Assembly (NCBI RefSeq): GCF_001570565.1
Contig: NZ_BBXE01000013.1
Coordinates: 264,984 to 328,983 of the forward strand
Direction of reading: 5' to 3'
DNA: 64,000 nt
From: Herbidospora yilanensis
GTDB lineage: Bacteria > Actinomycetota > Actinomycetes > Streptosporangiales > Streptosporangiaceae
The notes below the pieces were generated by a model. The model ran no database searches, was not told the DNA's origin, and saw only the letters and a list, made by a program, of their open reading frames with translations. Of the stretch, positions 33,006 to 49,136 are shown in pieces (the first letter of the stretch is position 1; each line of letters begins with the position of its first letter). The translations under genes were made by a program, and so were the position numbers.

Positions 33006-33007
33006 GA

Positions 33008-33517
33008 CTACAGGCCCCCTTCGTAAGGCATGACCCAGAAGAACTCGCCTTCCGCGTCATATTGGAAGATCAGCGCGGCCCCGCCCGCGCGGAAGACGTC
33101 GACGCCGGTCTGGCGCACCTGGATGACCGAGGTCGAGCCGTCGACGGCGCGGATCTCGGCCTGACCGAAGTCGGTGGAGACCGACTGGGTTCTGATGACG
33201 CAGATCTGCCCGACGAAGTCGTGCCGTGAGGGCACCTTCTCGGGCGCGGGCGTGAGGCGGCGTACCAGGAACGCGGCCCCGAGGCCCAGGACGAGCGCGG
33301 CGGCCAGGACCACCCAGCCGAGCGCCGGAAACAGCACGGATCCGGCCAGCGCGGCGAACCACCCCGTGGCCACGAACCCGGAGACCTCGGCCGCGGGCAG
33401 ACCGTCGAGGTCGACCACGCCGAAGGCCACGAGCAGCCAGAACCCGATGACGACGATCAGCGCGAAGCTGAACAGGACAGCCGGGAAGCCTAATGCGGCG
33501 TCCACGAAATCGCGCAA
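33008..33517 (-). CDS. NfeD/YqiJ-like membrane protein with a C-terminal OB-fold
   Basis: TTG start with AAAGGGGA upstream. It has 3-4 TM helices, then a soluble beta tail (GQICVIRTQSVSTDFGQAEIRAVDGSTSVIQVRQ...). Its stop lies 2 nt before the flotillin ATG. Confidence 0.75.
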   Translation of the reverse strand: MRDFVDAALGFPAVLFSFALIVVIGFWLLVAFGVVDLDGLPAAEVSGFVATGWFAALAGSVLFPALGWVVLAAALVLGLGAAFLVRRLTPAPEKVPSRHDFVGQICVIRTQSVSTDFGQAEIRAVDGSTSVIQVRQTGVDVFRAGGAALIFQYDAEGEFFWVMPYEGGL

Positions 33518-33601
33518 CTTCTATCCCCTTTACGGCATTTGCGCCGTCCCCTCTTGCAAACGTGGAATCTATCAGCGCGGTTCCGCAGGGAATAGGGTTA
33601 T

Positions 33602-35789: not shown

Positions 35790-38102
35790 ATGTATGGGGG
35801 GAACCTCCCCCCAATACTGCTGGACGTGAGCGATTCGGCCGACCTTCCGCAGTTCCCCGGTGTCCTGGACACCGTGCGCGCCTGGCTCTCCTCCGCCGAT
35901 CCCCGGCCCCTCGTGCTGACCGGGCCGCCCGGCAGCGGCACCGCGGCGTTGCTGGCCCGGCTCGGCGAGCACCTCGCCGGAGAGCCGTCCGTCGTCGTCC
36001 GCGACGACCTCTGCGACGACCCCGCCCGGTTGCCGGCGCGGCCGGGTCTCCGCGTGATCACCCGGGCCCGCCGCCGGCACGACGGGCTGCTCTCCCTTCC
36101 GGTGCGGCCCCTGCGCGGCCACGGCCCCGACAGCGAGGTGGTCCGGTACTTCCTGCGGTGCCTGCGCCGCCACGACCCGACCGCCGTCGTCGCGGCCGAG
36201 GACCTGTCCCAGGTGAGCGAGGTCTGCGCGGCCTCGTTCGGGCTGTCCGCCGACGTCGACCTGCTGGCCGGGCTGGTCGCCCGCTACGGCCTGGCGGCCG
36301 TGCGCGACGCGGTCGCCGAGGACCACCAGCGCACCCGGCTGGCCGGGCTGCTCGGCGACGCCCACGGCCACCACGACCTGAGCGGCGACGAGATGGTCGT
36401 GCTGGCCTCGATCCTGGCGCTGCCGGGCGGGGCGAGCGAGAACGTGCTGCGCCACTCGTTGCCGCGGTGCGACATCGGCGGGCTGACCGCCTCCCTGGTC
36501 GAGCGCGGCCTGGTGGTGCGCGCCGAGCCCCGGCGCTGGCACCTGCGGGTGAGCGGCTTCCCGGCGGCGAGCTGGTGCGCCGCGCGGCCGGAGGTGTCGC
36601 TCGACGCGATCCGCCAGGCGCAGGCCGACTACCTGTCGGGCCAGGTCGCGCGGCTGGCCGCGGGTGTCTTCACCGACCACCAGCGGGCCGTGTTCGCCGA
36701 GTTCGACCACGAGCGGCGCAACCTCAACGCCGCCGTCGCCGAACTCGTCGGCGGCGGCCGGTACGCCCAGGCCGTCGCCCTCATGCGGGACGCCCTGCCG
36801 TTGCTGGCCCGCACCTCCGGCGTGGCCGGGCTGCTGCCGCACCTGCTGCCGGTCATCCGCAGGTACGCGCCCGCGACCCCGGCCGAACGGCACACGTTGT
36901 CGCGGCTGGCCGTGCGGGTGTTCGCGGCCGGAGGGGAACAGGAGGCCGCCGCCGTCTGCTTCGACGCGCTGCCGGAGACCGACCCGGACGTGCCGCTGCT
37001 GGCGGCCCTCGTGCACGCCGTGCCCGACCCGGAGGAGCTGGCCGCCTGCGTGCGGACCGCCCGCGAACAGGGCGACGCGGTCCGGCTGGGCGAGTCGGTC
37101 GGCGAGTACGTCGCCTGCCTGGCCCGGCTGCGCCGGTTCGACCGCGCCGACGCCGAATGCCGTACCGCCCTGTTCGAGGCGATGTGCGGCGGGGACGACC
37201 ACGCCGCGGCCTCGTTGCTGCTCTGGCGCGCGGCCGCCGCCACCGCCCTGGCCACCGGCGACAGCCGCCTGTACGTCGAACGGGCCCTCGCCAAGCTGCT
37301 GCCCCTCGGCCCGGCGGCGGCCATGTCGGCCATCGCCGCCGTGGTCGACGGACGCCACCAGCGCGACCTCCAGCAGAGCGCCGTCGACCTGGCGATGGTC
37401 GCCGGGTCGCTCGGCCGGGCCTGCGCGGCCGAGACGGAGCGTCCGGTCGAGGTCGGCGGGCTGCTGACCGGGCGCATCGGCGTCCGGCCGCTGCGCCGCT
37501 GGGTGACGGCGGGAGAGGGGGTCGACCTCGCCGACCTGCTGTGCGAGATCCTCCAGCGCAGGTTCGGCGACGACCCGGCCGCCCCCCGGCCGGTGCCGCA
37601 GGGCTCCGTCGACCCGAGGGTGCTGCGGGAACGGTCGCGGCTGACCGCCCGCGAGTCGGAGGTCGCCGGGCTGGTCGCGACCGGCCTGACGAACAAGCAG
37701 ATCGCCCGCCGGTTGCGCATCTCCGAGTGGACGGTGGTCAACCACCTGCGCCAGGTGATGCGCAAGCTCGACTGCGCCTCCCGGGTCCAGGTCGCCCGCT
37801 GGGTGCACGATCTGGAGGCCGGGTCAGCCCGTCTCGAACCGGCCGACGGCGACGGTGTGCAGCAGGGCCGGGTCGACCAGCGAGGCGAAGTCGGCCGTGA
37901 CGAGGTCGGCGTCCAGCGCGGCCAGCAGCCCGAGGTGCCGGTCGACGTACTCCGGGGGGTCGATGCCGCACGAGAGGAGTTCCGCGTACTGCTGGGTCAC
38001 GGCCAGGGTGGACTCGTACAGTTCGGGCGCGGCGGCGAGCATGCGGTCCCTGACCCGCGTGACCAGCCCCCCGTCGACGTCACCCTCGCGGAGCTGCGTT
38101 AA
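35790..38102 (+). CDS. Large LuxR-family regulator (LAL-like, degenerate P-loop) with a ~90 aa tail antisense to the next gene
   Basis: The N-terminus LVLTGPPGSGTAALLARL is Walker-A-like but lacks the Lys. A helical-repeat middle region follows. The C-terminal LuxR HTH reads LTARESEVAGLVATGLTNKQIARRLRISEWTVVNHLRQVMRKLDCASRVQVARWV. The frame stays open to 38102. Confidence 0.75.
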   Translation: MYGGNLPPILLDVSDSADLPQFPGVLDTVRAWLSSADPRPLVLTGPPGSGTAALLARLGEHLAGEPSVVVRDDLCDDPARLPARPGLRVITRARRRHDGLLSLPVRPLRGHGPDSEVVRYFLRCLRRHDPTAVVAAEDLSQVSEVCAASFGLSADVDLLAGLVARYGLAAVRDAVAEDHQRTRLAGLLGDAHGHHDLSGDEMVVLASILALPGGASENVLRHSLPRCDIGGLTASLVERGLVVRAEPRRWHLRVSGFPAASWCAARPEVSLDAIRQAQADYLSGQVARLAAGVFTDHQRAVFAEFDHERRNLNAAVAELVGGGRYAQAVALMRDALPLLARTSGVAGLLPHLLPVIRRYAPATPAERHTLSRLAVRVFAAGGEQEAAAVCFDALPETDPDVPLLAALVHAVPDPEELAACVRTAREQGDAVRLGESVGEYVACLARLRRFDRADAECRTALFEAMCGGDDHAAASLLLWRAAAATALATGDSRLYVERALAKLLPLGPAAAMSAIAAVVDGRHQRDLQQSAVDLAMVAGSLGRACAAETERPVEVGGLLTGRIGVRPLRRWVTAGEGVDLADLLCEILQRRFGDDPAAPRPVPQGSVDPRVLRERSRLTARESEVAGLVATGLTNKQIARRLRISEWTVVNHLRQVMRKLDCASRVQVARWVHDLEAGSARLEPADGDGVQQGRVDQRGEVGRDEVGVQRGQQPEVPVDVLRGVDAAREEFRVLLGHGQGGLVQFGRGGEHAVPDPRDQPPVDVTLAELR

Positions 38103-39089
38103 CACCCGGGTGATCGCCTCGGCGGCGGCGGGGGCGCGGCCGGCGTCCACGAAGCCGCTGACGATGAACACCCCGCCGGAGAAGAACGGCATGAACCGGG
38201 CCTCGATGCCGTAGCTGGCCCCCATCCGGCCGCGCAGTTCGCGGTTGAGCAGGGAGTCGGGGCCGCCGCCGAGCAGTTCGCCCGCGACCCGGGCCGACGG
38301 CCAGCGCGGGTCGAGCCGGTCGACCGCGAAGCCGCCCAGCACGAGCCGGGTCTGGGGGCCGCCCCGGCCCGGCCGGTGCGTGCGGCCGGGCGTGTCCGCC
38401 GGGAGCGGCGGGACGTCGGCGAGGGGCAGGTCGTCCCCGGCGGGCACGCCGGCGAACGCCTTCGCGGCGGCGTCGGCGGCGCCGGTCCCGGCCAGGTCGC
38501 CGGCCACGACCAGGGTCATCCGGGCGGCGCCGGGCACGACGGCGGCGACGTCGTCCAGGGTCAGCGTGCGCCAGACCGCCTCGGTGCCGCCGAGCGGGCG
38601 GCCGTACCGGGAGCCGGGGGCCAGCACCGACTCGTGCACGAGTTTGTTGCCGAGCGCGATCGGGTCGTCGGACTCCATGGCCCGTTCGGCCACGACCTGG
38701 CGGCGCAGCGCCTCGAACGAGCGGGCCGTCGGCGTGAAGGGGTGCACCATCGCGGCCATCGCCTCGAACAACCGGGGCAGTTCGGCGGCCGGGCAGTCGC
38801 CCATGACGATCGGGCCCCGGTGCCCGCACCGCGTGGTGACCATCCCGCCCGCCAGGGCGAGGTCGCCGACGGTCCCGTCGCGGTGGTGCGGCGCGTCGGC
38901 GTTGAGCAGCGCCGCGTACGCCGCCACCACCCCCTCGGTCTCCGGGCGTTCGACCGCCGTGGTCGGCAGCAGGATCGACAGGGCGGCGGTGGCGACGTGC
39001 CGTCCGGGCATGTCGGCGAGCAGCACCCGCAGGCCGTTGTCCAGCGTGAACGTCTCCGGCTGCGGGAAACGCCAGGTCACAGGATCCAT
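37824..39089 (-). CDS. M16-family peptidase-like subunit lacking the HxxEH zinc motif
   Basis: Internal start MDPVTWRFPQPETFTLDNGLRVLLADMPGR in track ORF 37824..39449-. It has the two-lobe M16 fold signature but no HxxEH. It overlaps the upstream M16 gene by 13 nt. Confidence 0.75.
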   Translation of the reverse strand: MDPVTWRFPQPETFTLDNGLRVLLADMPGRHVATAALSILLPTTAVERPETEGVVAAYAALLNADAPHHRDGTVGDLALAGGMVTTRCGHRGPIVMGDCPAAELPRLFEAMAAMVHPFTPTARSFEALRRQVVAERAMESDDPIALGNKLVHESVLAPGSRYGRPLGGTEAVWRTLTLDDVAAVVPGAARMTLVVAGDLAGTGAADAAAKAFAGVPAGDDLPLADVPPLPADTPGRTHRPGRGGPQTRLVLGGFAVDRLDPRWPSARVAGELLGGGPDSLLNRELRGRMGASYGIEARFMPFFSGGVFIVSGFVDAGRAPAAAEAITRVLTQLREGDVDGGLVTRVRDRMLAAAPELYESTLAVTQQYAELLSCGIDPPEYVDRHLGLLAALDADLVTADFASLVDPALLHTVAVGRFETG

Positions 39090-40258
39090 GAGGGTTCTCC
39101 GGCGGCGTGGAAGGCGACGACCGACGGCCGTGCCATCGGCCCGGCGGCCAGCGCGGCCACCTCGGCGTTGGTGACCCGGCGGACGGCGTCGAGCCGCGTG
39201 GTGACCCCGGCGGCGTCGCCCGACCAGGCGTGTTCCCGGCACAACTCCTCGGCGAGTGTGCGGGCGGCCCCGAGGGCCCCGAGTTGTTCCCTGATGCGCA
39301 GGGCCTTGGCGGCGGCCAGCACGTCGGGCGGCAGCCCGTCGCGGGCCACGGCGGCCAGACGGGCGGCGACGTCCCGTTCGAGCGCGGCCAGGTCGGCCGA
39401 GGCCGGGACCGACAGCTTGACCAGGCCGATCGACGGGCCGAGCGCGCACCGGGCGTGCTGGCCGAGCGCGCCGAGCAGGCCGGGCCGCGAGCCGAGCACC
39501 GACCAGGGGGCGCTGGCCAGCGCCGCCATCACCACCTCGGCGGCGGCCGATCCCGGCGGCAGGGCGAAGGTCAGCCGCACCATGGACGTCGGCTGGCCCT
39601 CCTCGACGTCCTCCCGCGCGCCCAGCGGCTCCCCGGTGACCGGCGGCGGGGCCGGCCGGCCCGAGGGAAACCCGGCCAGGTGGTTCCCGGCGATCTCCAC
39701 GGCCGCGTCGGGGTCGGCCGCGCCGACGACCGACACGACCAGCCGGTCGGCGCCGTAGTGGGCCTCCACGAACGTGGCCACGTCGTCGGGCGTCACGGCG
39801 GCGACCTCGGCGGGGTCGCCGACCGGCGGGCGGCCCGCCGGGTGGTCGCGCCCGAATAACAACCGCAGGCCGCGCCGCAGCCCCGACCCGAACCGGCCGG
39901 GTTCGTCGCGTTCGCGGATCTCCTCCAGCACGATCCGGCGGTGTCCCGCCAGCACGTCCCCGGTCACGCCGCGCCGGCCGCGCCGCACCCGGTCGCCGGC
40001 CTCGGCCAGCATCGCCGGGAGGGTGACCGCCGGGCCGGTCGCCACGTAGTTCGTGGACTCGTAGCCGGTGGTGGCCTGCGCCGAGCCGTTCTCGGACATG
40101 ACGTGCTCGACCACGTGAGCCAGGCCCGACCTGCCGATGGGGTCGTGCAGGGAGCCCGCGCCGTGCCAGGCGTTGACCGCGACGAAGCCGAGCCCCGGGT
40201 CGGGCCGCACGACCAGGGTCGCGCCGCCCGGCAGCCGGCGGGTGACCAGCCCGTCCAT
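39077..40258 (-). CDS. M16-family zinc metallopeptidase (pitrilysin/insulinase type)
   Basis: Internal start MDGLVTRRLPGGATLVV in track ORF 39077..40792-, with the inverted zinc motif GLAHVVEHVM (HxxEH). The start shares one base with the ABC gene stop (TGATG). Confidence 0.8.
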   Translation of the reverse strand: MDGLVTRRLPGGATLVVRPDPGLGFVAVNAWHGAGSLHDPIGRSGLAHVVEHVMSENGSAQATTGYESTNYVATGPAVTLPAMLAEAGDRVRRGRRGVTGDVLAGHRRIVLEEIRERDEPGRFGSGLRRGLRLLFGRDHPAGRPPVGDPAEVAAVTPDDVATFVEAHYGADRLVVSVVGAADPDAAVEIAGNHLAGFPSGRPAPPPVTGEPLGAREDVEEGQPTSMVRLTFALPPGSAAAEVVMAALASAPWSVLGSRPGLLGALGQHARCALGPSIGLVKLSVPASADLAALERDVAARLAAVARDGLPPDVLAAAKALRIREQLGALGAARTLAEELCREHAWSGDAAGVTTRLDAVRRVTNAEVAALAAGPMARPSVVAFHAAGEPSWIL

Positions 40259-41994
40259 CACGCGCCCACGGGGGCGGGGGCCGCCTGGGCGTGCACGAAC
40301 GCCTGGTAGGCGGGGCTGGCCGACGACAACGTGCCGTGGTCGCCCACGGCGGTGACGCGGCCGGCGTCGACGACCACGATCGTGCCGGCCGCGGCGACCG
40401 TCGACAGGCGGTGGGTGACCATCACCACGGCCCGGTCGCGGCCCAGGTCGGCGAGCAGGTCGGTGAGCCGCCGTTCGTTGACGCCGTCCATGTGCGCGGT
40501 CGGTTCGTCGAGCAGCAGGATCTCGGCGTCGGTCAGCAGGGCGCGGGCGATGGACAGGCGCTGCTCCTCGCCGCCGGACATCTGGTCGCCCGCGCCGAGC
40601 ACCGCGTCCAGCCCGGCGGGCAGGGCGCGCACGGCCTGCTCCAGGCCGACGTCGCGCAGCGCGGTCCACAACTCGTCGTCGGACGGGGCGTCCGACCGGC
40701 CCAGCGTCAGGTTCTCGCGCACGGTCATGGACAGGATCGCCGACCCCTGCTCGACCAGGGCGACCCGGCGGCGGGCCTCGGCTGTCGGCCACTCGTGGAG
40801 GGGCGCGCCGAGGAGCTCCACCCGCCCGGCGTCGGTCTCGACGAAGCCCTCCACCACGTTGAGCAGAGTCGACTTGCCCGCTCCCGACGGTCCGACGATC
40901 GCCAGCACCCCGGTGCGCGGCACCTCAAGAGACACCCCGTCGAGCACCGGCTTGCCGCCGAGCGACACCACGACGTCCGAGAGCCGCAGCGCCGGCGCGC
41001 CCGGCGTCACCTCGGGCGCGCGGGCCGCCCCGGCCGGTTCGGTCTCCGCGCCGAGCACCTCGTCGACCCGCCGCGCGGCGGCCTTGCCGACCGCGATCCT
41101 GCCCGCGCCCTGCGCCAGCGCCATCAGCGGGTTGACGAGCTGGAACAGGTACATCAGGAAGGCGATGAACGCCGTGGTCTCCAGCGCGCCCGAGGCCAGG
41201 CGCACCCCGCCCACGGCGAGCACGCCGATGATGGCGACCTGCTGGCCCAGGCCCATCAGCGGGCTGATCGCCGCCTGGGCCCGCGCCGAGCGCACCGCCG
41301 ACGCCGCCGCCTCGCCGATCTCGTTCTCCAGCGGGGCGATGGCCCGGTCCTCCGCCCGGTACGCCTTGACCGTCGTCACCATCGTGAACACCGACTGCGC
41401 GGCCTGGGCCAGCCGGCCGAGCGCGGCCTGCTGCGCCTCGGCCGCCCGGCGCATGCCCGCCAGGAAGGCCCTGATGGCGATCGCGGCCACGACGAACGTG
41501 CCGACCGTCACGGCCAGCATCACCCAGTCGAGGATGCCCATCACGATCAGGTACGCCGTCACCATCACCGCCGAGACCGGCATGACCGTGACGCCCGTGT
41601 CGGTGATCGCGCGCATCTGGGCGGCGTCGGGCCCCATCCGGGAGACCACCTCGCCCACGCCGATCCGCCGGATCACCGGCACCCGCAGGCGCACCGCCCG
41701 GCGCACCACGGCCAGGCGCACGTCCTCGATGGCCCGTTCCCCGGCCGCGCTCAGCAGGTAGGACGACCAGCCTCCGGCGAACGCCCCGGCCAGCACGATC
41801 ACGACGAGCTGCGCCACCGGCCAGACGACGTCCCCGCCCGTCCCGCCGATCACGCCCAGGATGCGGGCGATCAGCAGCGGCGTGACGATCCCGGCCGCGG
41901 CCGAGACCAGGGCGAGCACCACCGAGGCGGCCAGCCGGCCCCGCCGCGCCCTAACCGACCGGGACAACAACCCGAGTGTCGGCGACTCCGCCAT
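40258..41994 (-). CDS. ABC exporter, fused permease and ATPase (type I exporter)
   Basis: Six N-terminal TM helices. Walker A is GPSGAGKST, the signature is MSGGEEQRLSIARAL and Walker B is ILLLDEPTAHMD. Confidence 0.9.
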   Translation of the reverse strand: MAESPTLGLLSRSVRARRGRLAASVVLALVSAAAGIVTPLLIARILGVIGGTGGDVVWPVAQLVVIVLAGAFAGGWSSYLLSAAGERAIEDVRLAVVRRAVRLRVPVIRRIGVGEVVSRMGPDAAQMRAITDTGVTVMPVSAVMVTAYLIVMGILDWVMLAVTVGTFVVAAIAIRAFLAGMRRAAEAQQAALGRLAQAAQSVFTMVTTVKAYRAEDRAIAPLENEIGEAAASAVRSARAQAAISPLMGLGQQVAIIGVLAVGGVRLASGALETTAFIAFLMYLFQLVNPLMALAQGAGRIAVGKAAARRVDEVLGAETEPAGAARAPEVTPGAPALRLSDVVVSLGGKPVLDGVSLEVPRTGVLAIVGPSGAGKSTLLNVVEGFVETDAGRVELLGAPLHEWPTAEARRRVALVEQGSAILSMTVRENLTLGRSDAPSDDELWTALRDVGLEQAVRALPAGLDAVLGAGDQMSGGEEQRLSIARALLTDAEILLLDEPTAHMDGVNERRLTDLLADLGRDRAVVMVTHRLSTVAAAGTIVVVDAGRVTAVGDHGTLSSASPAYQAFVHAQAAPAPVGA

Positions 41995-42970
41995 CGGACC
42001 CTCCCCTCGCGCGCACGGCGGCGAAGATCTCGCGCAGGTCGCGCATGCACTCGTCCTGGCCGTACATGTTGTTGACCGAGCTGGGGTTGACGACCACCTC
42101 GTCCACCCCCAGGTCGTGGTACTTGGCGATCTCGTCGGCGATGTGGTCGGGGTCGCCGTAGACGTACACCCCGGCCTGGACGAGTTCCCTGGCGCCCGAC
42201 ACCGGGTCGGAGGCGTCCACGTCGAGGCCCGCCCTGCGCAGCATGTCGGTGTAGTGGGGGGCCGACAGGTGGCTGATGCTGCCGTACTGGGCCAGCAGGT
42301 TGGCCGACCGGCCGGGCCGGGCGACGGCCGCGTGCACGACCGACACGATGCGCGGCGGCGGCTGCACCCCGGCCGCGCCCTGCGCGACGGCCGGCATGAC
42401 GACGTCCTCGATGTACTTGAGCGGCGTCAGCCACGTCATCGCGAGGTCGCCGCAGCGGCCGGTGACCCGGGCCATGGCGGGCCGCAGCACCCCCGCGCCG
42501 ATCTCCACCGGCGGGCAGTCCATCGGCGGCAGCGCGGCGTCGACGGTGAAGTGCTCTCCCTTGTGCCGCACGTGCTCGTTGCGGGCCAGCCGGCGGGCGA
42601 CGTCGATGAACTCGCCGACGATCGCGGCCGGTCTGGCGTACGGCTCGCCGCGCAACTGCGTCACGTACTGCGGGTAGGCGGCGCCGTAGCCGATCGCCAC
42701 CGGTTGTCCCATGAGCCGGGCCAGCGACCGGGCCTGCAACGCCGCGTCGTACGGGTGGCGCAGCACGATCAGCCCGACGGCCATGCCGATCGAGATCCGG
42801 CAGCCCGTCCCGGCCAGGTAGGCGACCGCCGGGTGGGACTCGATCCGCAACGACTGCCCGAGCCACAACCGCGCCGCGCCGATCTCCTCGGTCAGCCGGC
42901 CGTACGGGACGATCGTGTCCGGGTCGGTCGGCTGGTGCGGGAACATGAACGACACCTTGCGCGAGCTCAC
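41951..42970 (-). CDS. LLM-class (luciferase-like) flavin/F420-dependent oxidoreductase, candidate LanJ-type dehydroamino-acid reductase
   Basis: The C-terminal ~339 aa of track ORF 41951..43954-. The GTG start overlaps the upstream stop (GTGA), giving VSSRKVSFMFPHQP... (first beta-strand of the LLM TIM barrel). It continues ...LWLGQSL...IGMAVGLIVLRHPYDAA...GDPDHIADEIAKYHDLGVDEVVV. Confidence 0.75.
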   Translation of the reverse strand: MSSRKVSFMFPHQPTDPDTIVPYGRLTEEIGAARLWLGQSLRIESHPAVAYLAGTGCRISIGMAVGLIVLRHPYDAALQARSLARLMGQPVAIGYGAAYPQYVTQLRGEPYARPAAIVGEFIDVARRLARNEHVRHKGEHFTVDAALPPMDCPPVEIGAGVLRPAMARVTGRCGDLAMTWLTPLKYIEDVVMPAVAQGAAGVQPPPRIVSVVHAAVARPGRSANLLAQYGSISHLSAPHYTDMLRRAGLDVDASDPVSGARELVQAGVYVYGDPDHIADEIAKYHDLGVDEVVVNPSSVNNMYGQDECMRDLREIFAAVRARGGSDGGVADTRVVVPVG

Positions 42971-43938
42971 GACGCCACCTCCACCAGCGGGCTGTCGGCG
43001 TTGCGGTGCGGCGCGAGCGGGTCGGCGTTCGCCTCGGCGAGCGCCTCGGCGACGGCCTCGGCCAGGTCGCGGCCGTCGAACAGGTGCCGCGCCACGCCGT
43101 CGGCGACCGCCATCGTGCGGTGCTGGCCCAGGCTCATGCGGTCCCATCCGGGCCGGGTGTCGCGCGGCTCCCAGCCGTACGCGACGCCGTCGGCGATCGG
43201 GCTGGTCATCACCGAGTGGGCCGGGTTCAGGCCGGGCAGGTTCCGCACCGCCGCGACGAGGCCGCCCACGGCGTGCCACGACTCCTCGGTCAGGTAGACG
43301 ACGATCGCGTCCCGCCTCGGATACTGGTCGGCCTTCGCCAGCACCTTCGCCCGGTAGGTCGCCCCGGCGCCCTCCAGCCGACTCAGCACCGCGTGCCACA
43401 CGGCGGGCGCCATCGACGGCTCGTCGACGTGCAGGTAGATCCGCAGCATGTGGCCGCCGGCCCCGTGGCCGCCCGCCGAGCCGTTGACCAGGAAGAACCC
43501 GGGAGAGAGCGTCGGCCTGATCGCGGGCAGCTCCAGCGTGGTGCGGGTGCCGATCTCCGGCAGCGGCGTCGGGCTCTCGCCCCCGGGGATGCGCAGGCGC
43601 ACCCGGCCGACGTCGAAGAGCACGTGCCGGCCGAGCGGGCCGTCGATCATGGCCGACCGAACGACCGCCGGGGTGCGGCTGGTGCGGTGGGGGGTGGCCT
43701 CCCGCAGGAGGTCCTCGAAGTCGTAGTCGCGGCGCGGGTCCCACTCGCCGGTCCTGACGGCCGAGCCGCTGTGCCAGTGGCGGTAGAGCACCGGCCCGAG
43801 GTCCTGGCGCAACCGGGTGCGGTTGTCGCCCGTGACCGTCTCGTCCCCGACGGTCACCGACCGGGTGTCGGGGTCGAGGCGCAGGTCGCCGAGCAGGTGG
43901 TCGAGCCGGTCGAGGAGACCCTGGTGGGCGATGGTCAT
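42967..43938 (-). CDS. HopA1-effector-family protein, candidate phospho-Ser/Thr lyase (LxmY/TvaD-like)
   Basis: Internal start MTIAHQGLLDRLDHLL in track ORF 42967..44727-, 323 aa. It sits between an APH-type kinase and an LLM reductase, as in class V lanthipeptide and thioamitide clusters. Motifs such as MLRIYLHV, YRAKV and PRRDAIVVYL match my memory of the HopA1 family, but this was not verified by search. Confidence 0.6.
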   Translation of the reverse strand: MTIAHQGLLDRLDHLLGDLRLDPDTRSVTVGDETVTGDNRTRLRQDLGPVLYRHWHSGSAVRTGEWDPRRDYDFEDLLREATPHRTSRTPAVVRSAMIDGPLGRHVLFDVGRVRLRIPGGESPTPLPEIGTRTTLELPAIRPTLSPGFFLVNGSAGGHGAGGHMLRIYLHVDEPSMAPAVWHAVLSRLEGAGATYRAKVLAKADQYPRRDAIVVYLTEESWHAVGGLVAAVRNLPGLNPAHSVMTSPIADGVAYGWEPRDTRPGWDRMSLGQHRTMAVADGVARHLFDGRDLAEAVAEALAEANADPLAPHRNADSPLVEVAS

Positions 43939-43940
43939 GA

Positions 43941-45047
43941 TCAGTTCTCTCCAAGGCCGATGGTGGGGGCGAACTTCTCCGGCGTCGTGAGCGCGTTGCG
44001 GCCGATCCCGGCCATGCCGCGCTCCACCGCGCTGAGCCGCGCGCCGTGCACGGCGCCCGCGAGCAGCCGGTCGAAGAAGTGCCACCCGATGTAGCCGGTG
44101 GCCCGCACGGCCAGGCCCTCGTCCGGCTCGGCGACCTCCCGGTAGCCCTGCCAGAAGCGGCGGATGTGCTCGCGCACGGCCGACAGGTGCCGGTCGCCCG
44201 CGGCGACGATCGCCTCGTGGGCGGCGCCCGGCGACAGGCCCGTGTCCAGGTCGAGCTCGCGGAACATGCGCGCCACCGCGTGGTGCACGAACTCGCCCGC
44301 GAAGGCCCCGACGTCCCGGGCCGGGTCGTGGTGCCGGAACTCCTCCCAGTCGATGACGTACAGGTCGTCGCCGGAGCACAGGAACTGGTCCAGGCGCAGG
44401 TCGCCGTGGGTGACGGTGGCGGGGGCGGCGGCCGAGACCCGGTGCAGCGCGGCGAGCGCCTCGACCAGCACCTTGTCGTGCTGGAGCAGCGCCCACGCCT
44501 CGACCTCGCCGCCGCTGCAGTTGGCGTAGTCCTCGGGGCTCAGCGCGTAGAAGGCGTTGGCCCGGCGGTCGTCGGCCGACTCGGGCAGGTCCTCGGCGCG
44601 CGGCAGCGAGTGCACCTCGCCCAGCACCCGGCCCATCCGGTGGGCCAGCTCGACGTCGAGCTCCCCGGCCGCCAGCAGGTCGGAGGCGGCGCGGGAGTCC
44701 GGCACGTACTCGAAGACCAGCAGGCATTCGCCGGCGTCGGCGCCGTGGAAGGCCGGCACCCGCAGCTCGGCCGTCGCACGGCCGGCGATCAGCCGCTGGA
44801 AGGCCAGCACCCGGTCCATCCGGGCGGCGGCGTGCGCGCGGTCCCCCCGCAGGCGCTTGACGAACAGGTCGGGTCCCTCGGCGGTCGGCACCAGCCAGTT
44901 GTCGTTGCGGCCGAGGAAGCCGCGCATGCCCTCCACGATGGGCGTGGCCCCGCTGAGCGAGGCGACCGCCTGGACGAACTCCTCCGGGCGCGACACCGGC
45001 CGGGCCGCGACCAGCCGGGTCGTCTGTGTTTCCTCTTTCACGTCCAT
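43941..45047 (-). CDS. APH/choline-kinase-fold phosphotransferase, candidate RiPP Ser/Thr kinase (LxmK/TvaC-like)
   Basis: The catalytic loop is VTHGDLRLDQFL and the metal-binding segment is YVIDWEEF. The nucleotide-lobe segment reads DLFVKRL...LLVFEYVP. The start is taken at MDVKEETQ (M18 of track ORF 43941..45098-) and is uncertain. Confidence 0.75.
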   Translation of the reverse strand: MDVKEETQTTRLVAARPVSRPEEFVQAVASLSGATPIVEGMRGFLGRNDNWLVPTAEGPDLFVKRLRGDRAHAAARMDRVLAFQRLIAGRATAELRVPAFHGADAGECLLVFEYVPDSRAASDLLAAGELDVELAHRMGRVLGEVHSLPRAEDLPESADDRRANAFYALSPEDYANCSGGEVEAWALLQHDKVLVEALAALHRVSAAAPATVTHGDLRLDQFLCSGDDLYVIDWEEFRHHDPARDVGAFAGEFVHHAVARMFRELDLDTGLSPGAAHEAIVAAGDRHLSAVREHIRRFWQGYREVAEPDEGLAVRATGYIGWHFFDRLLAGAVHGARLSAVERGMAGIGRNALTTPEKFAPTIGLGEN

Positions 45048-45246
45048 GCGCCGAAATCTATGGACGCGGAAAGGCCCCGCGACATCCCAGGAAAGCACCG
45101 GCAGCAGGCATATGGCAGATGCCTGACAGATCCTTGCCGGCCGGTGTTCCCGAATGGCAGTCGGCCGGTGACGCGGGCGCGCAAATCCTCGTCATTTCGC
45201 CAGGACCGGCGGCCTAGTTTCCTTTGTTCCGAAGGAAGGAGATCTC

Positions 45247-45387
45247 ATGTCCAGCGAACTCATCGCGGGATACGCGAACTACGCCAGCACCGAATCGGTC
45301 CTGAGCGAGAACACGACCGCCGAGTGGTGGCCGATCACGTCGTACACCGTCACGCTCTCCACGACGACCACCTCGATCTGGATCTGA
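45247..45387 (+). CDS. RiPP precursor peptide 1 (46 aa)
   Basis: Not in the track because it is under 60 aa. SD GGAAGGAGA lies 6 nt upstream. The sequence is MSSELIAGYANYASTESVLSENTTAEWWPITSYTVTLSTTTTSIWI. It shares its leader with four downstream paralogs. Confidence 0.8.
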   Translation: MSSELIAGYANYASTESVLSENTTAEWWPITSYTVTLSTTTTSIWI

Positions 45388-45397
45388 GGGGCGCGCC

Positions 45398-45538
45398 GTG
45401 TCCGAGCTGATCGCGGGTTACGCCAATTACGCCAGCACCGAGGCGGTGCTCCAGGAACGTTCCGAGGCCGGCCGCTGGATCGAGTGGACCCTCTGGTTCA
45501 CCGTCACCATCTCCGTCACCCCCACCTCCTCCCTCTGA
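45398..45538 (+). CDS. RiPP precursor peptide 2 (46 aa, GTG start)
   Basis: (M)SELIAGYANYASTEAVLQERSEAGRWIEWTLWFTVTISVTPTSSL. GAGGGG lies upstream, and the ORF starts 10 nt after the peptide 1 stop. Confidence 0.75.
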   Translation: MSELIAGYANYASTEAVLQERSEAGRWIEWTLWFTVTISVTPTSSL

Positions 45539-45559
45539 ACCTGCTGAGAAAGGAAGACC

Positions 45560-45709
45560 ATGTCCGAGCTGATCGCCGGTTACGCCAACTACGCCTCCAC
45601 CGAGGCCATCCTCCAGGAGCGGCAGCTCGCCGCCCGTGAGCCCGAGACCGGCCTGTTCACGCTCACCATCACGATCTCGCTGACCATCACGGTCACGATC
45701 AGCCTCTGA
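45560..45709 (+). CDS. RiPP precursor peptide 3 (49 aa)
   Basis: MSELIAGYANYASTEAILQERQLAAREPETGLFTLTITISLTITVTISL. The SD is GAAAGGAAG. Confidence 0.8.
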   Translation: MSELIAGYANYASTEAILQERQLAAREPETGLFTLTITISLTITVTISL

Positions 45710-45722
45710 CCAGGAGGTCCCG

Positions 45723-45872
45723 ATGCACGAGCTCGTCGCCGGATACGCGAACTATGCCTCGGCCGAGGCGATCCTGCGGGAACAGGCCGCCGGGCGTGTT
45801 CTCGAAGCGGGTCTCTTCTTCTCGGTGACCTTCAGCTTCACCCACAGCAATTCCATCTCCTTCTCCATCTGA
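45723..45872 (+). CDS. RiPP precursor peptide 4 (49 aa)
   Basis: MHELVAGYANYASAEAILREQAAGRVLEAGLFFSVTFSFTHSNSISFSI. The SD is AGGAGG. Confidence 0.8.
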   Translation: MHELVAGYANYASAEAILREQAAGRVLEAGLFFSVTFSFTHSNSISFSI

Positions 45873-45890
45873 CCGAAAGGAAACGGGCGA

Positions 45891-46046
45891 ATGAACGACC
45901 TCATCGCCGGATACGCCAACTACGCCTCCACCGAGGCCATCCTGCACGAGCGGCAGATCGCGAGCCGCGACGCCGAATCGATCAGCGCGACCGTGACGGT
46001 CACCTGGACCCTCACCGTCTCCTGGTCCTACTCCTGGTCCTACTAG
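45891..46046 (+). CDS. RiPP precursor peptide 5 (51 aa)
   Basis: MNDLIAGYANYASTEAILHERQIASRDAESISATVTVTWTLTVSWSYSWSY. The SD is GAAAGGAAA. Its TAG stop shares the CTAG palindrome with the convergent LuxR gene stop. Confidence 0.8.
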   Translation: MNDLIAGYANYASTEAILHERQIASRDAESISATVTVTWTLTVSWSYSWSY

Positions 46047-48934
46047 GAATCGCGCAGCACCGCGGCGTGGTCCCCCAGCGCCCCCCGGTTGGAAAGCCCG
46101 GTCTTGGCCAGCAGGCTGGCCACGTGCTTCTCCACCGTCCGCGGTGAGATGAAAAGTCGTCGGCCGATCTCGACGTTGCCGAGCCGTTCGGCGAGCAACA
46201 TCAGAACCTGGTGCTCGCGCACGGTCACGCCGAGGTTGCGCAGTTCGCCGGGCACCCCCTCCCGCCCGGGCCGACGGTACGACACCGCCGCCCCCGCCTG
46301 GCGCAGCAACGTGCGGCAGGCCGCCGTCACCGCCGTCACGCCCGCCTCGTGGAAGTGGTCCTCGGCCGCCCGCAACCACACCACCGGCTCGCCCCATCCG
46401 TCGGCCAGCGCGGCCTCCGCGACCAGCCGCGCCCCCAGGTGCGCCGCCTGCGGGAACGGCTCCCCGGCCGCCCGCGCCTCCGCCATCGTCCGCCCGGCCG
46501 CCGCGTGCTCGCCCCGCCCGCCCAGCAACACCGCGCGGGCGAGCAGCAGGAAGTGCCGGTTCCACCGCAGTTCGGCGGCCGGCTGGGCGTGCACGGCCGC
46601 CCAGTCGTCGAGGGTGAGCTCGCCGGCGAGCGCGCCCAGCAGCACGGCCAGGCCGTAGCGGCCCGTCATGTAGTAGAGCGTGGGATGTTCGTCCTCCCAC
46701 GCGCGTGCCCTGGCGAGCAACTCCGCCGCCTGGTCGCGGTCCTCCTCCAGCAGGGCGCAGAACGCCTGGCAGAGGCCGTACACGACCGGGGTGTGCAGGC
46801 TCTGCTCACCGCCCCACCTGCGGAAATCGGCCAGGGCGTGCTCCATGGCCTCGCGCCGCCCCTGGTGGGCGGCCAGTGTCGCCTGCGCCATCAGCAGATA
46901 CTGGGTGTAGGCCGTGTGCCCCAGCCGGATCGTGGTCTCGACGCACGCGGCGGCGGTCTCGGCGGCGCTCTTGTACTCCGCCCGCAGCACCCGCGTCATC
47001 ACCAGGGACGCCTCCGCGCTGTGCACCAGGCTGATCGCGCCCGCCTGGGTGGCCGCCCGCAGCACCTCCTCAAGCGGATCGCTCTCCCCGGTACGCATGT
47101 TGTGGTTGGCCGCCAGCCGGTACATCGCCCGCAACCGCCACAGGCTCAGCCCGTGCACCTCGGCGATGGCCTTCATCCGGGTCAGGCACCGGTCGGGCTC
47201 GCCGAACCCGTGCACCCTGGTCAGCATGGCCAGCCGCTCCCACGCCTGGCAGGCCACCTCGGGCAGCGGCAGCCGCTCGGCCACCTCGGCGGCGCGTCGC
47301 GACAGCGCCTCGGCGGCGGCCATCTCGGCCGGCCCGGCTTCGTTGACGCCGTGGTCGGGGAACAACAACTGCGCCTCGATCACGTCGATCGCGGCGCCGC
47401 GCGCCTCGTCGGGCAGGCTCTCCAGCGACCGCCGCACGGCCGCCACGTGGGCGCGCCCGGCGGGCAACTCGCCGATCTCGGCGGCCACCCACGCCAGCTT
47501 GGTGCGCAGGTCGACCTCCTGCCACAGCCCCATCGACAGGTCGTCGGACGCGCACTCCCTGGCCAGCTCCAGCGCCCGGTCGGCCCGGCCGCCCTCGGTC
47601 AGCGCGTGCAGCAACCGCTGGAGCGTGTGGGCCCGCGCCGGGGCGGGGCCGCCCTCCTGGAGCCGGTCGGCCCGTTCGAGCAGGGTCGCCGCGACGTCGG
47701 CGGCGCCGCCGTTCAGGTAACGTTCGCCCGCCTCGGCCAGCAACGCCCCGGCCGTGTGGACCTCACCGGCCGTCAGCCGCAGGCTCGCGGCGATCTGGAG
47801 CCACTCGTCCGGGAGCCCCGGATACAGGCGTTCGACCGACCGGGCCGCCTGGCGGGCCAGCCGGGCCCGCTCCGCCGGGATCAGCTCCGCCGACAACGCC
47901 TCGGCGGTCAGGGCGTGGCGGAAGGCGTACCATTCCCCGGCCGGTTCGTCGGGCACGACGAGCCGCGCCGTGGTGGCCGCCCGCAGGATCGCCTCGACCC
48001 CCCGGTCGTCGAGGCCGGAGACGTCCTGGATGACCGGCACCGGGAAGCGGTTCCCGAACACCGCCCCGGTCAGCAGCAGCTCGTGCGCCGCCGGCACGAG
48101 CGTCGCCATGCGCGCCGCGATCCCGCGCGCCGCCGAGTTCGGCCCCCGCGCGCCCGGGTCGTCTTTCAGGGCGTCGACGAACTCCTCGACCAAATACGGC
48201 ACGCCGTCCGTCTCGGCCACGAGGCGGTCCATCACTCCGTCCGGCAGCACGTCCGGCAACTCGTCCGGCCGTGCCAGGCAGGCCGCGACGAGCCGGCGGG
48301 TCTCGTCGGGCGACAGCGGCGGCAACTCGACGACCTCCGCCACCTGGCGGCGGGCGCAGTCGTCGGCCACGGTCCGCGCCGGGCCGGCGTGCCCGCGCAG
48401 GTTCACCAGGAGCAACGCCGGCACGTCGGCGAGGTTGTCGGCCAGGTATTCGACCACGCCCAGCGTGCCCGCGTCGGCGTCGTGCAGGTCCTCCAGCACC
48501 AGCACGCCGCCGCGCGACTCCCGTCCGAGAACGGTCAGGAGCCGCAACACGGCCTCGGCGAGGATGACCGCCGACTCCAGCCGCCGCGCGCCCCCCTCCT
48601 CCCGCCACTCGGGCACCAGCGTCGTCAACGCAGGGAGATAGGGCCGCAACAGCGGATCGTCGGGCGGCCTGCGCGACCGGGCGAGCGAGAACAACGCCTC
48701 GCTCAGCGGCTTGAACGGGATGTCCGCGCTGACCGCGCTACCCCGCCCGCGCAGGCTCACCAGCCCCAGGTCACCGGCCCGCCGGAGCACCTCCGACGTC
48801 AACCGGGACTTCCCGATGCCGGGATCGCCGACCAGGAAGACGGTCTTCCCGCGACCGTCCCCGACCTGCTCCAGACACCTGTCGAACAGCGCTTTCTCGG
48901 GTTCCCGCCCGATCAGGACCGGCGACCTGGACAC
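46043..48934 (-). CDS. LAL-type LuxR-family regulator (AAA ATPase + TPR-like repeats + LuxR HTH)
   Basis: GTG start gives VSRSPVLIGREPEKALFDRCLEQVGDGRGKTVFLVGDPGIGKSRL (Walker A), and Walker B is VLVLEDLHDAD. The C-terminal HTH reads LTVREHQVLMLLAERLGNVEIGRRLFISPRTVEKHVASLLAKTGLSNR. Confidence 0.85.
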   Translation of the reverse strand: MSRSPVLIGREPEKALFDRCLEQVGDGRGKTVFLVGDPGIGKSRLTSEVLRRAGDLGLVSLRGRGSAVSADIPFKPLSEALFSLARSRRPPDDPLLRPYLPALTTLVPEWREEGGARRLESAVILAEAVLRLLTVLGRESRGGVLVLEDLHDADAGTLGVVEYLADNLADVPALLLVNLRGHAGPARTVADDCARRQVAEVVELPPLSPDETRRLVAACLARPDELPDVLPDGVMDRLVAETDGVPYLVEEFVDALKDDPGARGPNSAARGIAARMATLVPAAHELLLTGAVFGNRFPVPVIQDVSGLDDRGVEAILRAATTARLVVPDEPAGEWYAFRHALTAEALSAELIPAERARLARQAARSVERLYPGLPDEWLQIAASLRLTAGEVHTAGALLAEAGERYLNGGAADVAATLLERADRLQEGGPAPARAHTLQRLLHALTEGGRADRALELARECASDDLSMGLWQEVDLRTKLAWVAAEIGELPAGRAHVAAVRRSLESLPDEARGAAIDVIEAQLLFPDHGVNEAGPAEMAAAEALSRRAAEVAERLPLPEVACQAWERLAMLTRVHGFGEPDRCLTRMKAIAEVHGLSLWRLRAMYRLAANHNMRTGESDPLEEVLRAATQAGAISLVHSAEASLVMTRVLRAEYKSAAETAAACVETTIRLGHTAYTQYLLMAQATLAAHQGRREAMEHALADFRRWGGEQSLHTPVVYGLCQAFCALLEEDRDQAAELLARARAWEDEHPTLYYMTGRYGLAVLLGALAGELTLDDWAAVHAQPAAELRWNRHFLLLARAVLLGGRGEHAAAGRTMAEARAAGEPFPQAAHLGARLVAEAALADGWGEPVVWLRAAEDHFHEAGVTAVTAACRTLLRQAGAAVSYRRPGREGVPGELRNLGVTVREHQVLMLLAERLGNVEIGRRLFISPRTVEKHVASLLAKTGLSNRGALGDHAAVLRDS

Positions 48935-48935
48935 G

Positions 48936-49136
48936 TTACTTGTGCGACACCGAGACGGGGTTGACGGGGTCGCCCTCAAGTCCGAGCGCGATGGTCGCGC
49001 CCGCGGCGGTGTCGGGCGACTTAAGGATCAGGGTCGCGCCCGCGGTCAGCCCCGCCAGCACGAGCGCCCGGGTGAGCGGCCTGATGTTGGCCAGCCGCGC
49101 GCCGGCCGCGAGCACCGGATTCTGCTCAGTGTTCAT
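48936..49136 (-). CDS. Small hypothetical protein (66 aa) translationally coupled to the LanM-like gene
   Basis: MNTEQNPVLAAGARLANIRPLTRALVLAGLTAGATLILKSPDTAAGATIALGLEGDPVNPVSVSHK. The ATG overlaps the LanM-like stop (ATGA) and GC3 is high. It has one hydrophobic segment and no Cys. Confidence 0.55.
   Translation of the reverse strand: MNTEQNPVLAAGARLANIRPLTRALVLAGLTAGATLILKSPDTAAGATIALGLEGDPVNPVSVSHK

Follow-up and report, generated by a model that had tools for sequence, protein, structure and literature searches.

A gene for an LLM-fold oxidoreductase of Herbidospora yilanensis (339 residues; positions 41951..42970, minus strand) probably encodes a dehydroamino-acid reductase of the LanJC type, as judged from its family membership and its genomic neighbours. 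The gene lies in a 64,000-nucleotide stretch of DNA (contig NZ_BBXE01000013.1; hereafter the window), together with five precursor peptide genes whose products would be the substrates of the enzyme, and the cofactor is most probably F420H2. The LLM protein would be the third and final tailoring enzyme of a compact operon for a ribosomally made peptide with post-translational modifications (RiPP), which diverges from the five precursor genes and also encodes a LanK-type kinase and a HopA1-type LanY lyase (K, Y and J hereafter designate the kinase, lyase and LLM genes). The sequence-only reading from which we started had proposed a candidate dehydroamino-acid reductase, and this proposal is supported by the NCBIfam matches, by the ranking of the F420-dependent reductase Mer in profile and fold comparisons, and by the relatives of the enzyme in lanthipeptide clusters.

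The LLM oxidoreductase and its relatives

The G+C content of the window (70-77%) makes raw lists of open reading frames (ORFs) uninformative, and genes were therefore called from the G+C content at third codon positions (GC3) and from candidate starts. The GC3 frame plot shows a minus-strand coding frame at about 41975-42900, with two other minus-strand frames on either side. The LLM gene starts at the GTG at 42970, preceded by a GGAGG 6-10 nt upstream, and the N-termini of database homologues line up with this start (MS--SRKVSFMFP vs MT--STRVSFMFP). The lyase/LLM junction reads ...GGAGGTGGCGTC-GTGA-GCTCG, so that the TGA of the HopA1 gene (42969..42967) and the GTG of the LLM gene (42970..42968) have two bases in common. 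At the other end, the LLM stop codon TAG (41953..41951) lies beyond the ATG of the ABC exporter gene (41994, preceded by GAGGGGAGGG), which gives an overlap of 44 nt. Both overlaps, as well as the position of the gene between a lyase and an exporter, had been claimed from the sequence alone; the junction sequences confirm the former, and the Pfam matches upstream (HopA1) and downstream (ABC_membrane and ABC_tran) the latter. The overlap of the Y stop with the J start (ATGA or GTGA) recurs in Sphaerimonospora, Rhizohabitans, Flexivirga, Micromonospora, Jatrophihabitans and one metagenome contig. The 12 C-terminal residues of the LLM protein, which correspond to the part overlapping the ABC gene, are variable in homologues and disordered in the AlphaFold model, and the LLM and ABC genes do not overlap in the related locus of Streptomyces sp. 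NBC_01190 (L085; retrieved loci bear L numbers). We therefore regard the 3' overlap as real here, but not as a conserved feature.

The following lines of evidence place the enzyme near F420-dependent reductases. First, it matches the Pfam family Bac_luciferase (PF00296; E = 1e-32), and the ten NCBIfam families that it scores highest against all belong to the F420-dependent LLM subfamilies. TIGR03564 (MSMEG_4879) is the best of them with 100.6 bits and TIGR03841 scores 83.5 bits, as compared with 23 bits for SsuD and at most 24 bits for the FMN-type models, which leaves the F420 families 60-75 bits ahead of the FMN families. Second, a profile built from 17 sequences of the family and compared with all PDB chains retrieved the F420-dependent Mer as its best match (2e-16 to 1e-14), with SsuD, FGD and Adf at about 5e-7. 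Third, an AlphaFold model built from a 78-sequence alignment (mean confidence score pLDDT, 94.8) was matched best by Foldseek to Mer-F420 complexes (template-modelling score, TM, of 0.74-0.79), then to FGD2 and Adf, with SsuD/MsuD at 0.61-0.68. Fourth, the core of about 325 residues has no insertions and has the length of F420-type members. Mer (PDB 1z69, 8qpl), the closest solved structure by both profile and fold, is an F420H2-dependent hydride transfer reductase, as predicted for the LLM enzyme of the window, from which it differs in its sequence (only about 20% identity), its archaeal origin, its role in C1 metabolism and its small-molecule substrate. LxmJ, the LanJC of lexapeptide, has been assigned to the reductase ("Type A") clade alongside Mer and fPKR (Mascotti et al.), and both LxmJ and Cao12 carry an MSMEG_4879-family domain (PMC8068269).

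Several observations weigh against this placement. Every NCBIfam match to an F420 family is far below its curated cut-off (for instance 100.6 vs 234 bits), the database name of the protein is "LLM class flavin-dependent oxidoreductase", the Foldseek E-values of F420-type and FMN-type LLMs are close together, and no fbi/cof genes occur within the 64-kb window, the stretch to which this check was confined. The relatives of the enzyme all come from Actinomycetota, most of which make F420. The low F420-family scores, the database names and the SsuD/MsuD fold matches at similar E-values are what would be expected of an FMN-dependent monooxygenase or another non-reductive LLM, which could oxidise, for example, Trp/Tyr or a terminus and leave the dehydro residues in place. 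We consider such an enzyme very improbable, in view of the 60-75-bit lead of the F420 families, the first rank of Mer by both profile and TM-score, the insertion-free core, the occurrence of the clade in lanthipeptide clusters with D-Ala products, the genetic evidence for RosJ, and the lack of any residue change, apart from F141 (see below), that sets the subclade apart. An SsuD-type identity in particular was rejected on the HMM (hidden Markov model), profile and fold rankings. Clustering with monooxygenase-type LLMs had been named beforehand as an outcome that would refute a reductase; all three rankings put F420/Mer above SsuD.

We take the genomic context to be decisive for assigning this candidate reductase to its family. 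A scan of one genome per species detected relatives of the LLM protein in 426 genomes; the 80 best loci among these were retrieved and compared using tblastn queries for K, Y, ABC, M16, LanD, LanX, LanB, LanC and LanM; four additional loci came from exact-protein look-ups. Herbidospora cretacea and H. solisilvae have proteins that share 97% identity with the LLM protein. In the 11 closest loci (54-97% identity; among the 80 best of 426), K, Y and LLM are contiguous, and LanD and LanX are absent. Nearly all the loci at 44-51% identity contain LanD and LanX (class V, with or without K/Y), LanB/LanC (class I) or LanM (class II). LanX, queried by tblastn with the L081 protein, is absent from the window, L001-L011, L084 and L085, and present in most of the 44-51% loci; similarly, tblastn found no LanD homologue in the cluster of the window, where every gene of the operon is assigned and none is left over for the LanX role. 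In all 15 related K/Y/J loci examined, the LLM gene stands beside dehydratase genes and precursors, and in the window it is coupled to LanY, with LanK and the five precursors within 3 kb.

Two of the retrieved loci illustrate the wider family. L081 comprises an ABC-LLM-Flavoprotein-LanX block, an M16 pair, an APH and a HopA1 protein, and two precursors tagged PF28162 (LxmA-like_leader), in a gene order that matches cao11-cao12-caoD-cao14 of the cacaoidin cluster. In L082, the LLM gene lies downstream of LanC, LanB and an ABC gene. LanJC-type LLMs close class I (LanB/LanC) operons in many Streptomyces (L082/L083, L041, L044, L048, L066, L068), which suggests that LanJC-type enzymes form D-residues outside class V as well.

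In a neighbour-joining tree rooted on Mer, the LLMs of the K/Y/J-only loci are monophyletic inside the lanthipeptide-associated LLMs, and the conserved residues, including the HYTDMLR motif, are common to the whole clade. With the LLMs that occupy the LanJC position of class V clusters, the window LLM shares 44-51% identity, whereas its own subclade, from clusters without LanX/LanD, forms a separate branch with at least 54% identity within itself. In particular, it is 47% identical over 311 residues (E = 5e-88) to UUB23867.1, a 325-residue protein of Streptomyces sp. RK44. Kintamdin is made by this strain, and KinJ is an LLM of 325 residues, so that UUB23867.1 is probably KinJ by strain, length and annotation. 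LxmJ did not appear among the source names of the homologue clusters from which the RK44 protein was recovered. A single position, F141, separates the K/Y/J subclade from the class V/I LanJCs; it gives no sign of a changed chemistry and is uninformative as to a specificity for dehydrobutyrine (Dhb, from Thr) beside dehydroalanine (Dha, from Ser). From its sequence, the window LLM is best read as a new branch of the known LanJC enzymes.

About 15 relatives of the cluster encode LanK, LanY, the LLM, the ABC exporter and usually the M16 pair, and no LanX/LanD. They span nine or more actinomycete genera (Sphaerimonospora, Rhizohabitans, Embleya, Streptomyces, Catenulispora, Actinospica, Flexivirga, Micromonospora and Jatrophihabitans) and include metagenome-assembled genomes. 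No match was obtained when metagenomes were scanned for DNA encoding AGYANYASTEA, and a scan with the single LLM protein as query gave five unrelated loci at 26% identity and no family members. The branch of Streptomyces sp. NBC_01190 (L085, the same as L009) lacks the M16 pair and encodes, directly after its two precursors, a 663-residue radical S-adenosylmethionine (SAM) protein (L085 5210-7201), which may add a further modification there.

Alternating precursor cores and the predicted pathway

Five small precursor genes (45247-46046, plus strand) diverge from the operon. They encode precursor 1 (MSSELIAGYANYASTESVLSENTTAEWWPITSYTVTLSTTTTSIWI; 45247..45387), which has an orthologue in L001, precursor 2 (MSELIAGYANYASTEAVLQERSEAGRWIEWTLWFTVTISVTPTSSL; 45398..45538), precursor 3 (MSELIAGYANYASTEAILQERQLAAREPETGLFTLTITISLTITVTISL; 45560..45709), with eight strictly alternating Ser/Thr, precursor 4 (MHELVAGYANYASAEAILREQAAGRVLEAGLFFSVTFSFTHSNSISFSI; 45723..45872) and precursor 5 (MNDLIAGYANYASTEAILHERQIASRDAESISATVTVTWTLTVSWSYSWSY; 45891..46046), with 11 strictly alternating Ser/Thr across 21 residues. 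Their leaders read S/N-E-L-I-A-G-Y-A-N-Y-A-S-T-E-A-I-L and are similar to the LxmA-like ones of the L081 precursors (LLAGYTAYTNAE), both sets having the motif L-[IL]-A-G-Y-[AT]-[NA]-Y-[AT]-[SN]. A Pfam scan of the five window precursors and those of L081, in a copy of Pfam without PF28162, returned no match, and the likeness to LxmA is accordingly one of motif. The cores (TSYTVTLSTTTTSIWI, TLWFTVTISVTPTSSL, TLTITISLTITVTISL, SVTFSFTHSNSISFSI and SISATVTVTWTLTVSWSYSWSY) are (S/T)-X repeats up to the penultimate residue. They contain 10, 8, 8, 8 and 11 Ser/Thr, in agreement with the 8-11 potential dehydro residues per substrate that had been counted earlier, and none of the five precursors contains Cys. 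The strict alternation of the cores, the lack of Cys, LanX and LanD, and the published failure of LxmJ and KinJ to reduce Dhb were not part of the sequence-only reading.

The related clusters have 2-6 tandem precursors each, of which about 40 sequences were collected; examples of their cores are ALLSITITITITITITI, SITLTVTVSWTWTWTWTY and TSVSLSVSLSLSVSWSWSWSW, and repeats of the SVSWSYSWSY type also occur. The alternation was quantified on 32 precursors from 11 clusters. The in-phase positions are Ser or Thr in 87% of cases (134 Thr and 93 Ser, hence 59% Thr, 134/227), and 85% of the out-of-phase positions are V, I, W, L, F, Y, A or M, with 2.5% charged residues. The median alternation run is 8, and 23 of the 32 precursors beat 99% of their shuffles. 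The core halves differ in composition, the N-terminal one being aliphatic and the C-terminal one rich in Trp/Tyr. When related cores are compared at in-phase positions, Ser and Thr are exchanged for each other 102 times, as against 18 exchanges of Ser/Thr for another residue, which indicates that the hydroxyl is selected and not the methyl group. Cys occurs once in total in the 32 precursors. We observed Cys near the C-terminus in L008 (about 7423-7600, ...SWSWSWSCG), L092 (5572-5721, ...TVTTICSCTL) and L011 (6873-7034, ...VIVRGCN), three clusters without LanX and LanD; spontaneous or LanY-assisted thioether formation is possible in these members.

By analogy with the class V systems, we propose the following pathway. 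From homology, LanK would recognise the LxmA-like leader (ELIAGYANYASTEAIL) and phosphorylate the Ser and Thr of the core, and LanY would eliminate the phosphate to yield Dha and Dhb. The LLM enzyme, as its family membership predicts, would transfer a hydride from F420H2 to C-beta, with a proton added to C-alpha, so that Ser would become D-Ala and Thr D-2-aminobutyrate (D-Abu). The M16 pair would then cut off the leader, and the ABC protein would export the product. Precedents exist for each of the three tailoring steps. Reconstituted CaoK and CaoY carry out eight successive dehydrations, in which LanK phosphorylates and the HopA1-like LanY eliminates (PMC9486802). LxmJ converts Dha to D-Ala with F420H2, two Dha stay unreduced upon deletion of rosJ, and KinJ reduces three Dha, including those of a linear peptide.

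The window and the Embleya locus (L084) offer no tailoring enzyme besides K, Y and the LLM, and the chemistry on offer is thus phosphorylation, elimination and the LLM reaction. With Ser/Thr at every second position, hydrophobic residues in between and no Cys, this would lead to uncharged linear peptides of about 15-22 residues with alternating D/L residues and an aromatic-rich C-terminus. Such a configuration would require that no site escape the reductase, and we put forward fully alternating D/L peptides as a possible product, short of an even chance. Equally tentative, and by analogy, is the proposal that the precursors found a ribosomal "gramicidin-like" family, in which every second residue would be converted to D-Ala or D-Abu and the peptides would form beta-helices acting as membrane channels.

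The Thr residues are the main difficulty. LxmJ left Dhb unreduced in LxmA S28T, and six Dhb persist in kintamdin and in its linear shunt product, three Dha being reduced. Since 59% of the targets are Thr, full reduction needs activity on Dhb, which among LanJC enzymes has been inferred for CaoJC only, from the single D-Abu of cacaoidin, for which CaoJC is the sole reductase candidate. These facts count against reduction at all sites, and the first two are equally what a Dha-selective enzyme of the LanJC type would predict, as is the reduction of two Dha by RosJ. Such an enzyme would convert Ser to D-Ala and leave Dhb in place, yielding Dhb-rich linear peptides with interspersed D-Ala; for members that are almost all Ser (TSVSLSVSLSLSVSWSWSWSW, TSISLSLSVSYSVSVSWSISWSL), the product would be the same as that of a reductase acting at all sites. 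We nevertheless find Dha selectivity unlikely. The 102 Ser/Thr swaps, against 18 others, are hard to square with a choice between a planar sp2 and a D-configured sp3 residue at the same position, and Thr-rich cores such as ALLSITITITITITITI (one Ser, six Thr) would leave a conserved, translationally coupled reductase nearly without substrate; the D-Abu of cacaoidin, with its sole candidate reductase, points in the same direction. From the free exchange of Ser and Thr, and from the retention of the reductase with nearly all-Thr cores, we infer that reduction of both Dha and Dhb is favoured.

The (S/T)-X repeat is also a classic beta-strand pattern. The peptides could accordingly be amphipathic beta-strands with little modification, on which the LLM enzyme acts at one or a few sites. 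We give this explanation hardly any credence, as the leader is of the class V type, the precursors always stand beside K, Y and the LLM, CaoK and CaoY are iterative, and selection keeps an in-phase hydroxyl and not the identity of Ser versus Thr. A LanJC-type reductase acting on these precursors is our preferred explanation, and it may reduce all of the dehydro residues or the Ser-derived ones.

The operon and neighbouring genes

Six minus-strand genes, K, Y, LLM, ABC exporter and two M16 genes, follow one another almost without gaps from 37.8 to 45.05 kb. K and Y are separated by 2 nt, Y and J are joined by a GTGA, J and the exporter gene by the 44-nt overlap, and the exporter and the first M16 gene by another GTGA. 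No terminator-like site was found inside the operon on the operon strand, and a promoter and terminator scan of 37000-46300 gave nothing beyond the shuffle expectation. The first gene (43941..45047) encodes a 368-residue LanK-type Ser/Thr kinase with an APH fold, which matches NCBIfam NF038156 ("class V lanthionine synthetase subunit LxmK") with 364 bits, above the cut-off of 315. It is followed by the LanY-type phosphoSer/phosphoThr lyase of the HopA1 family (42967..43938, 323 residues; Pfam HopA1, 6.6e-41), whose position beside K and the LLM is kept in all K/Y/J loci. Downstream of the LLM gene, for which the Pfam, NCBIfam, AlphaFold 2 model, fold match, KinJ identity and clade evidence was given above, lies the exporter gene (40258..41994), which encodes a fused permease and ATPase of 578 residues. 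The first M16 gene (39077..40261) encodes a peptidase with a zinc motif of the HxxEH type (HVVEH) in its translation, with Pfam matches to Peptidase_M16_C and, weakly, Peptidase_M16; its product is probably the active subunit of the leader protease. The second (37824..39089; Peptidase_M16_C, 1.5e-17) encodes a subunit without the zinc motif. All of these genes are on the minus strand. A plus-strand LuxR-type ORF (35790-38102) converges on the second M16 gene with a 3' overlap of about 280 nt, across which the frame plot follows the minus-strand gene; the annotated convergent overlap is shorter (48 nt) in Embleya.

On the other side, the precursor genes are followed by a minus-strand gene for a large LuxR-family regulator (46043..48979; Pfam AAA_16 and GerE), the start codon of which is uncertain. 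A LuxR-family gene adjoins the precursors also in L084, L085, L086, L092 and L094. Beyond it lies a conserved 66-residue ORF (MNTEQNPVLAAGARLANIRPLTRALVLAGLTAGATLILKSPDTAAGATIALGLEGDPVNPVSVSHK; 48936-49136, minus strand), whose ATG overlaps the stop of a LanM gene (ATGA) and whose end runs into the called start of the LuxR gene. A small ORF in the corresponding position in Sphaerimonospora shares 53% identity with it, and similar small ORFs with hydrophobic N-termini also stand beside the LuxR gene in L092 and L095; the product of the 66-residue ORF could be an immunity protein, a signal or a secreted peptide.

The LanM itself is an 833-residue class II enzyme (49133-51634, minus strand) with DUF4135 and LANC_like domains (TIGR03897, 459 bits) and the apparent zinc-ligand motifs WCGG and CHG, and no Cys-containing precursor lies nearby. 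A LanM adjoins the cluster also in Sphaerimonospora (L086) and in Micromonospora (L093), and in the latter it has its own Cys-rich LanA and C39 ABC transporter. This adjacency could mean that two peptide systems repeatedly share a location, or that they are functionally paired. LanM as a necessary part of the pathway was considered and rejected, as it is missing in most relatives, the cores are Cys-free and the Micromonospora LanM has a Cys-containing LanA of its own.

Further away (26278-33520, minus strand), the window encodes a 1597-residue protein with DUF3686 ("ATPase involved in DNA repair"), DUF7902 and AAA_5 domains, followed by ORFs of 686 and 170 residues without Pfam match. These genes may form a defence or repair module.

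Comparison with known systems and significance

The LLM TIM-barrel of the window enzyme is shared by LxmJ (lexapeptide), CaoJC/Cao12 (cacaoidin), RosJ (rosin), StnJ (triantimycin) and KinJ (kintamdin), and MSMEG_4879/TIGR03564 is the best domain family of LxmJ and Cao12 as it is of the window enzyme. The partners are also the same as in class V-type LanJC clusters, namely LanK, HopA1-type LanY, an M16B pair, an ABC exporter and a LuxR regulator, the last three of which occur in the ros, stn and kin clusters too. The known LanJC enzymes act on 1-5 sites per peptide, whereas the window peptides offer 8-11 candidate sites, at every second residue and mostly derived from Thr. As regards the criteria for class V, LanK and LanY are present, and LanX, core Cys and LanD are absent. 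Without Cys, LanX or LanD, neither lanthionine nor aminovinylcysteine (AviCys) can form and the cluster cannot be classed as a lanthipeptide one; we describe it rather as a Cys-free, lanthipeptide-derived dehydration-reduction system. No description of this cluster family was found in the searchable literature, a coverage that leaves out most subscription journals and figures.

The same net reaction, from Dha/Dhb to D-Ala/D-Abu, is carried out by LanJA (LtnJ, NpnJA, RodJA; zinc/NADPH) and LanJB (BsjJB, CrnJ; flavin), of which LanJB and RodJA accept Dhb. These enzymes, from class I/II systems of Firmicutes and cyanobacteria, are unrelated to the window LLM in fold and cofactor, and their products have lanthionine rings and no regular alternation. 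To our knowledge, bicereucin (BsjJB) comes closest as a precedent, being a peptide with many D-residues obtained by dehydration and reduction.

In their predicted features, the window products resemble the polytheonamides (proteusins) and gramicidin A, which are hydrophobic, uncharged and alternating D/L. Alternating chirality in hydrophobic peptides allows beta-helix channels, as in gramicidin and the polytheonamides, and the pattern of gramicidin A supports a beta-6.3 helix channel. The Trp-rich C-terminal halves of the cores (SWSYSWSY, SWTWTWTWTY, SWSWSWSW) appear to parallel the Trp-D-Leu repeats of gramicidin A. The route to the D-residues differs, being dehydration and hydrogenation in the window, the radical SAM epimerase PoyD in the polytheonamides and the epimerisation (E) domains of a non-ribosomal peptide synthetase (NRPS) in gramicidin, and the window route implies that all D-residues would be D-Ala or D-Abu. 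Unlike gramicidin- and polytheonamide-type systems, the cluster of the window has no terminal capping enzymes.

If our proposal is true, nature would reach alternating D/L peptides by a third, mechanistically independent route, in addition to NRPS epimerisation domains and radical SAM epimerases, and the enzyme would be the first LanJC to work iteratively on 8-11 sites, and on Dhb. LanJC enzymology would thereby be extended from 1-5 Dha sites to iterative reduction, probably of Dhb too. Should the reductase act on every site, three small enzymes and a gene-encoded template would suffice to write alternating D/L stereochemistry, the D positions being programmed by the placement of Ser or Thr codons. 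Class V lanthipeptide machinery would have been re-used for a non-lanthipeptide product class, to which genome-mining rules would give the wrong label. With 2-6 copies per cluster, the natural precursor sets already amount to a substrate library, and the family would offer a genetically tractable and mutable route to membrane-active peptides of the gramicidin or polytheonamide kind and to protease-resistant, D-rich peptides.

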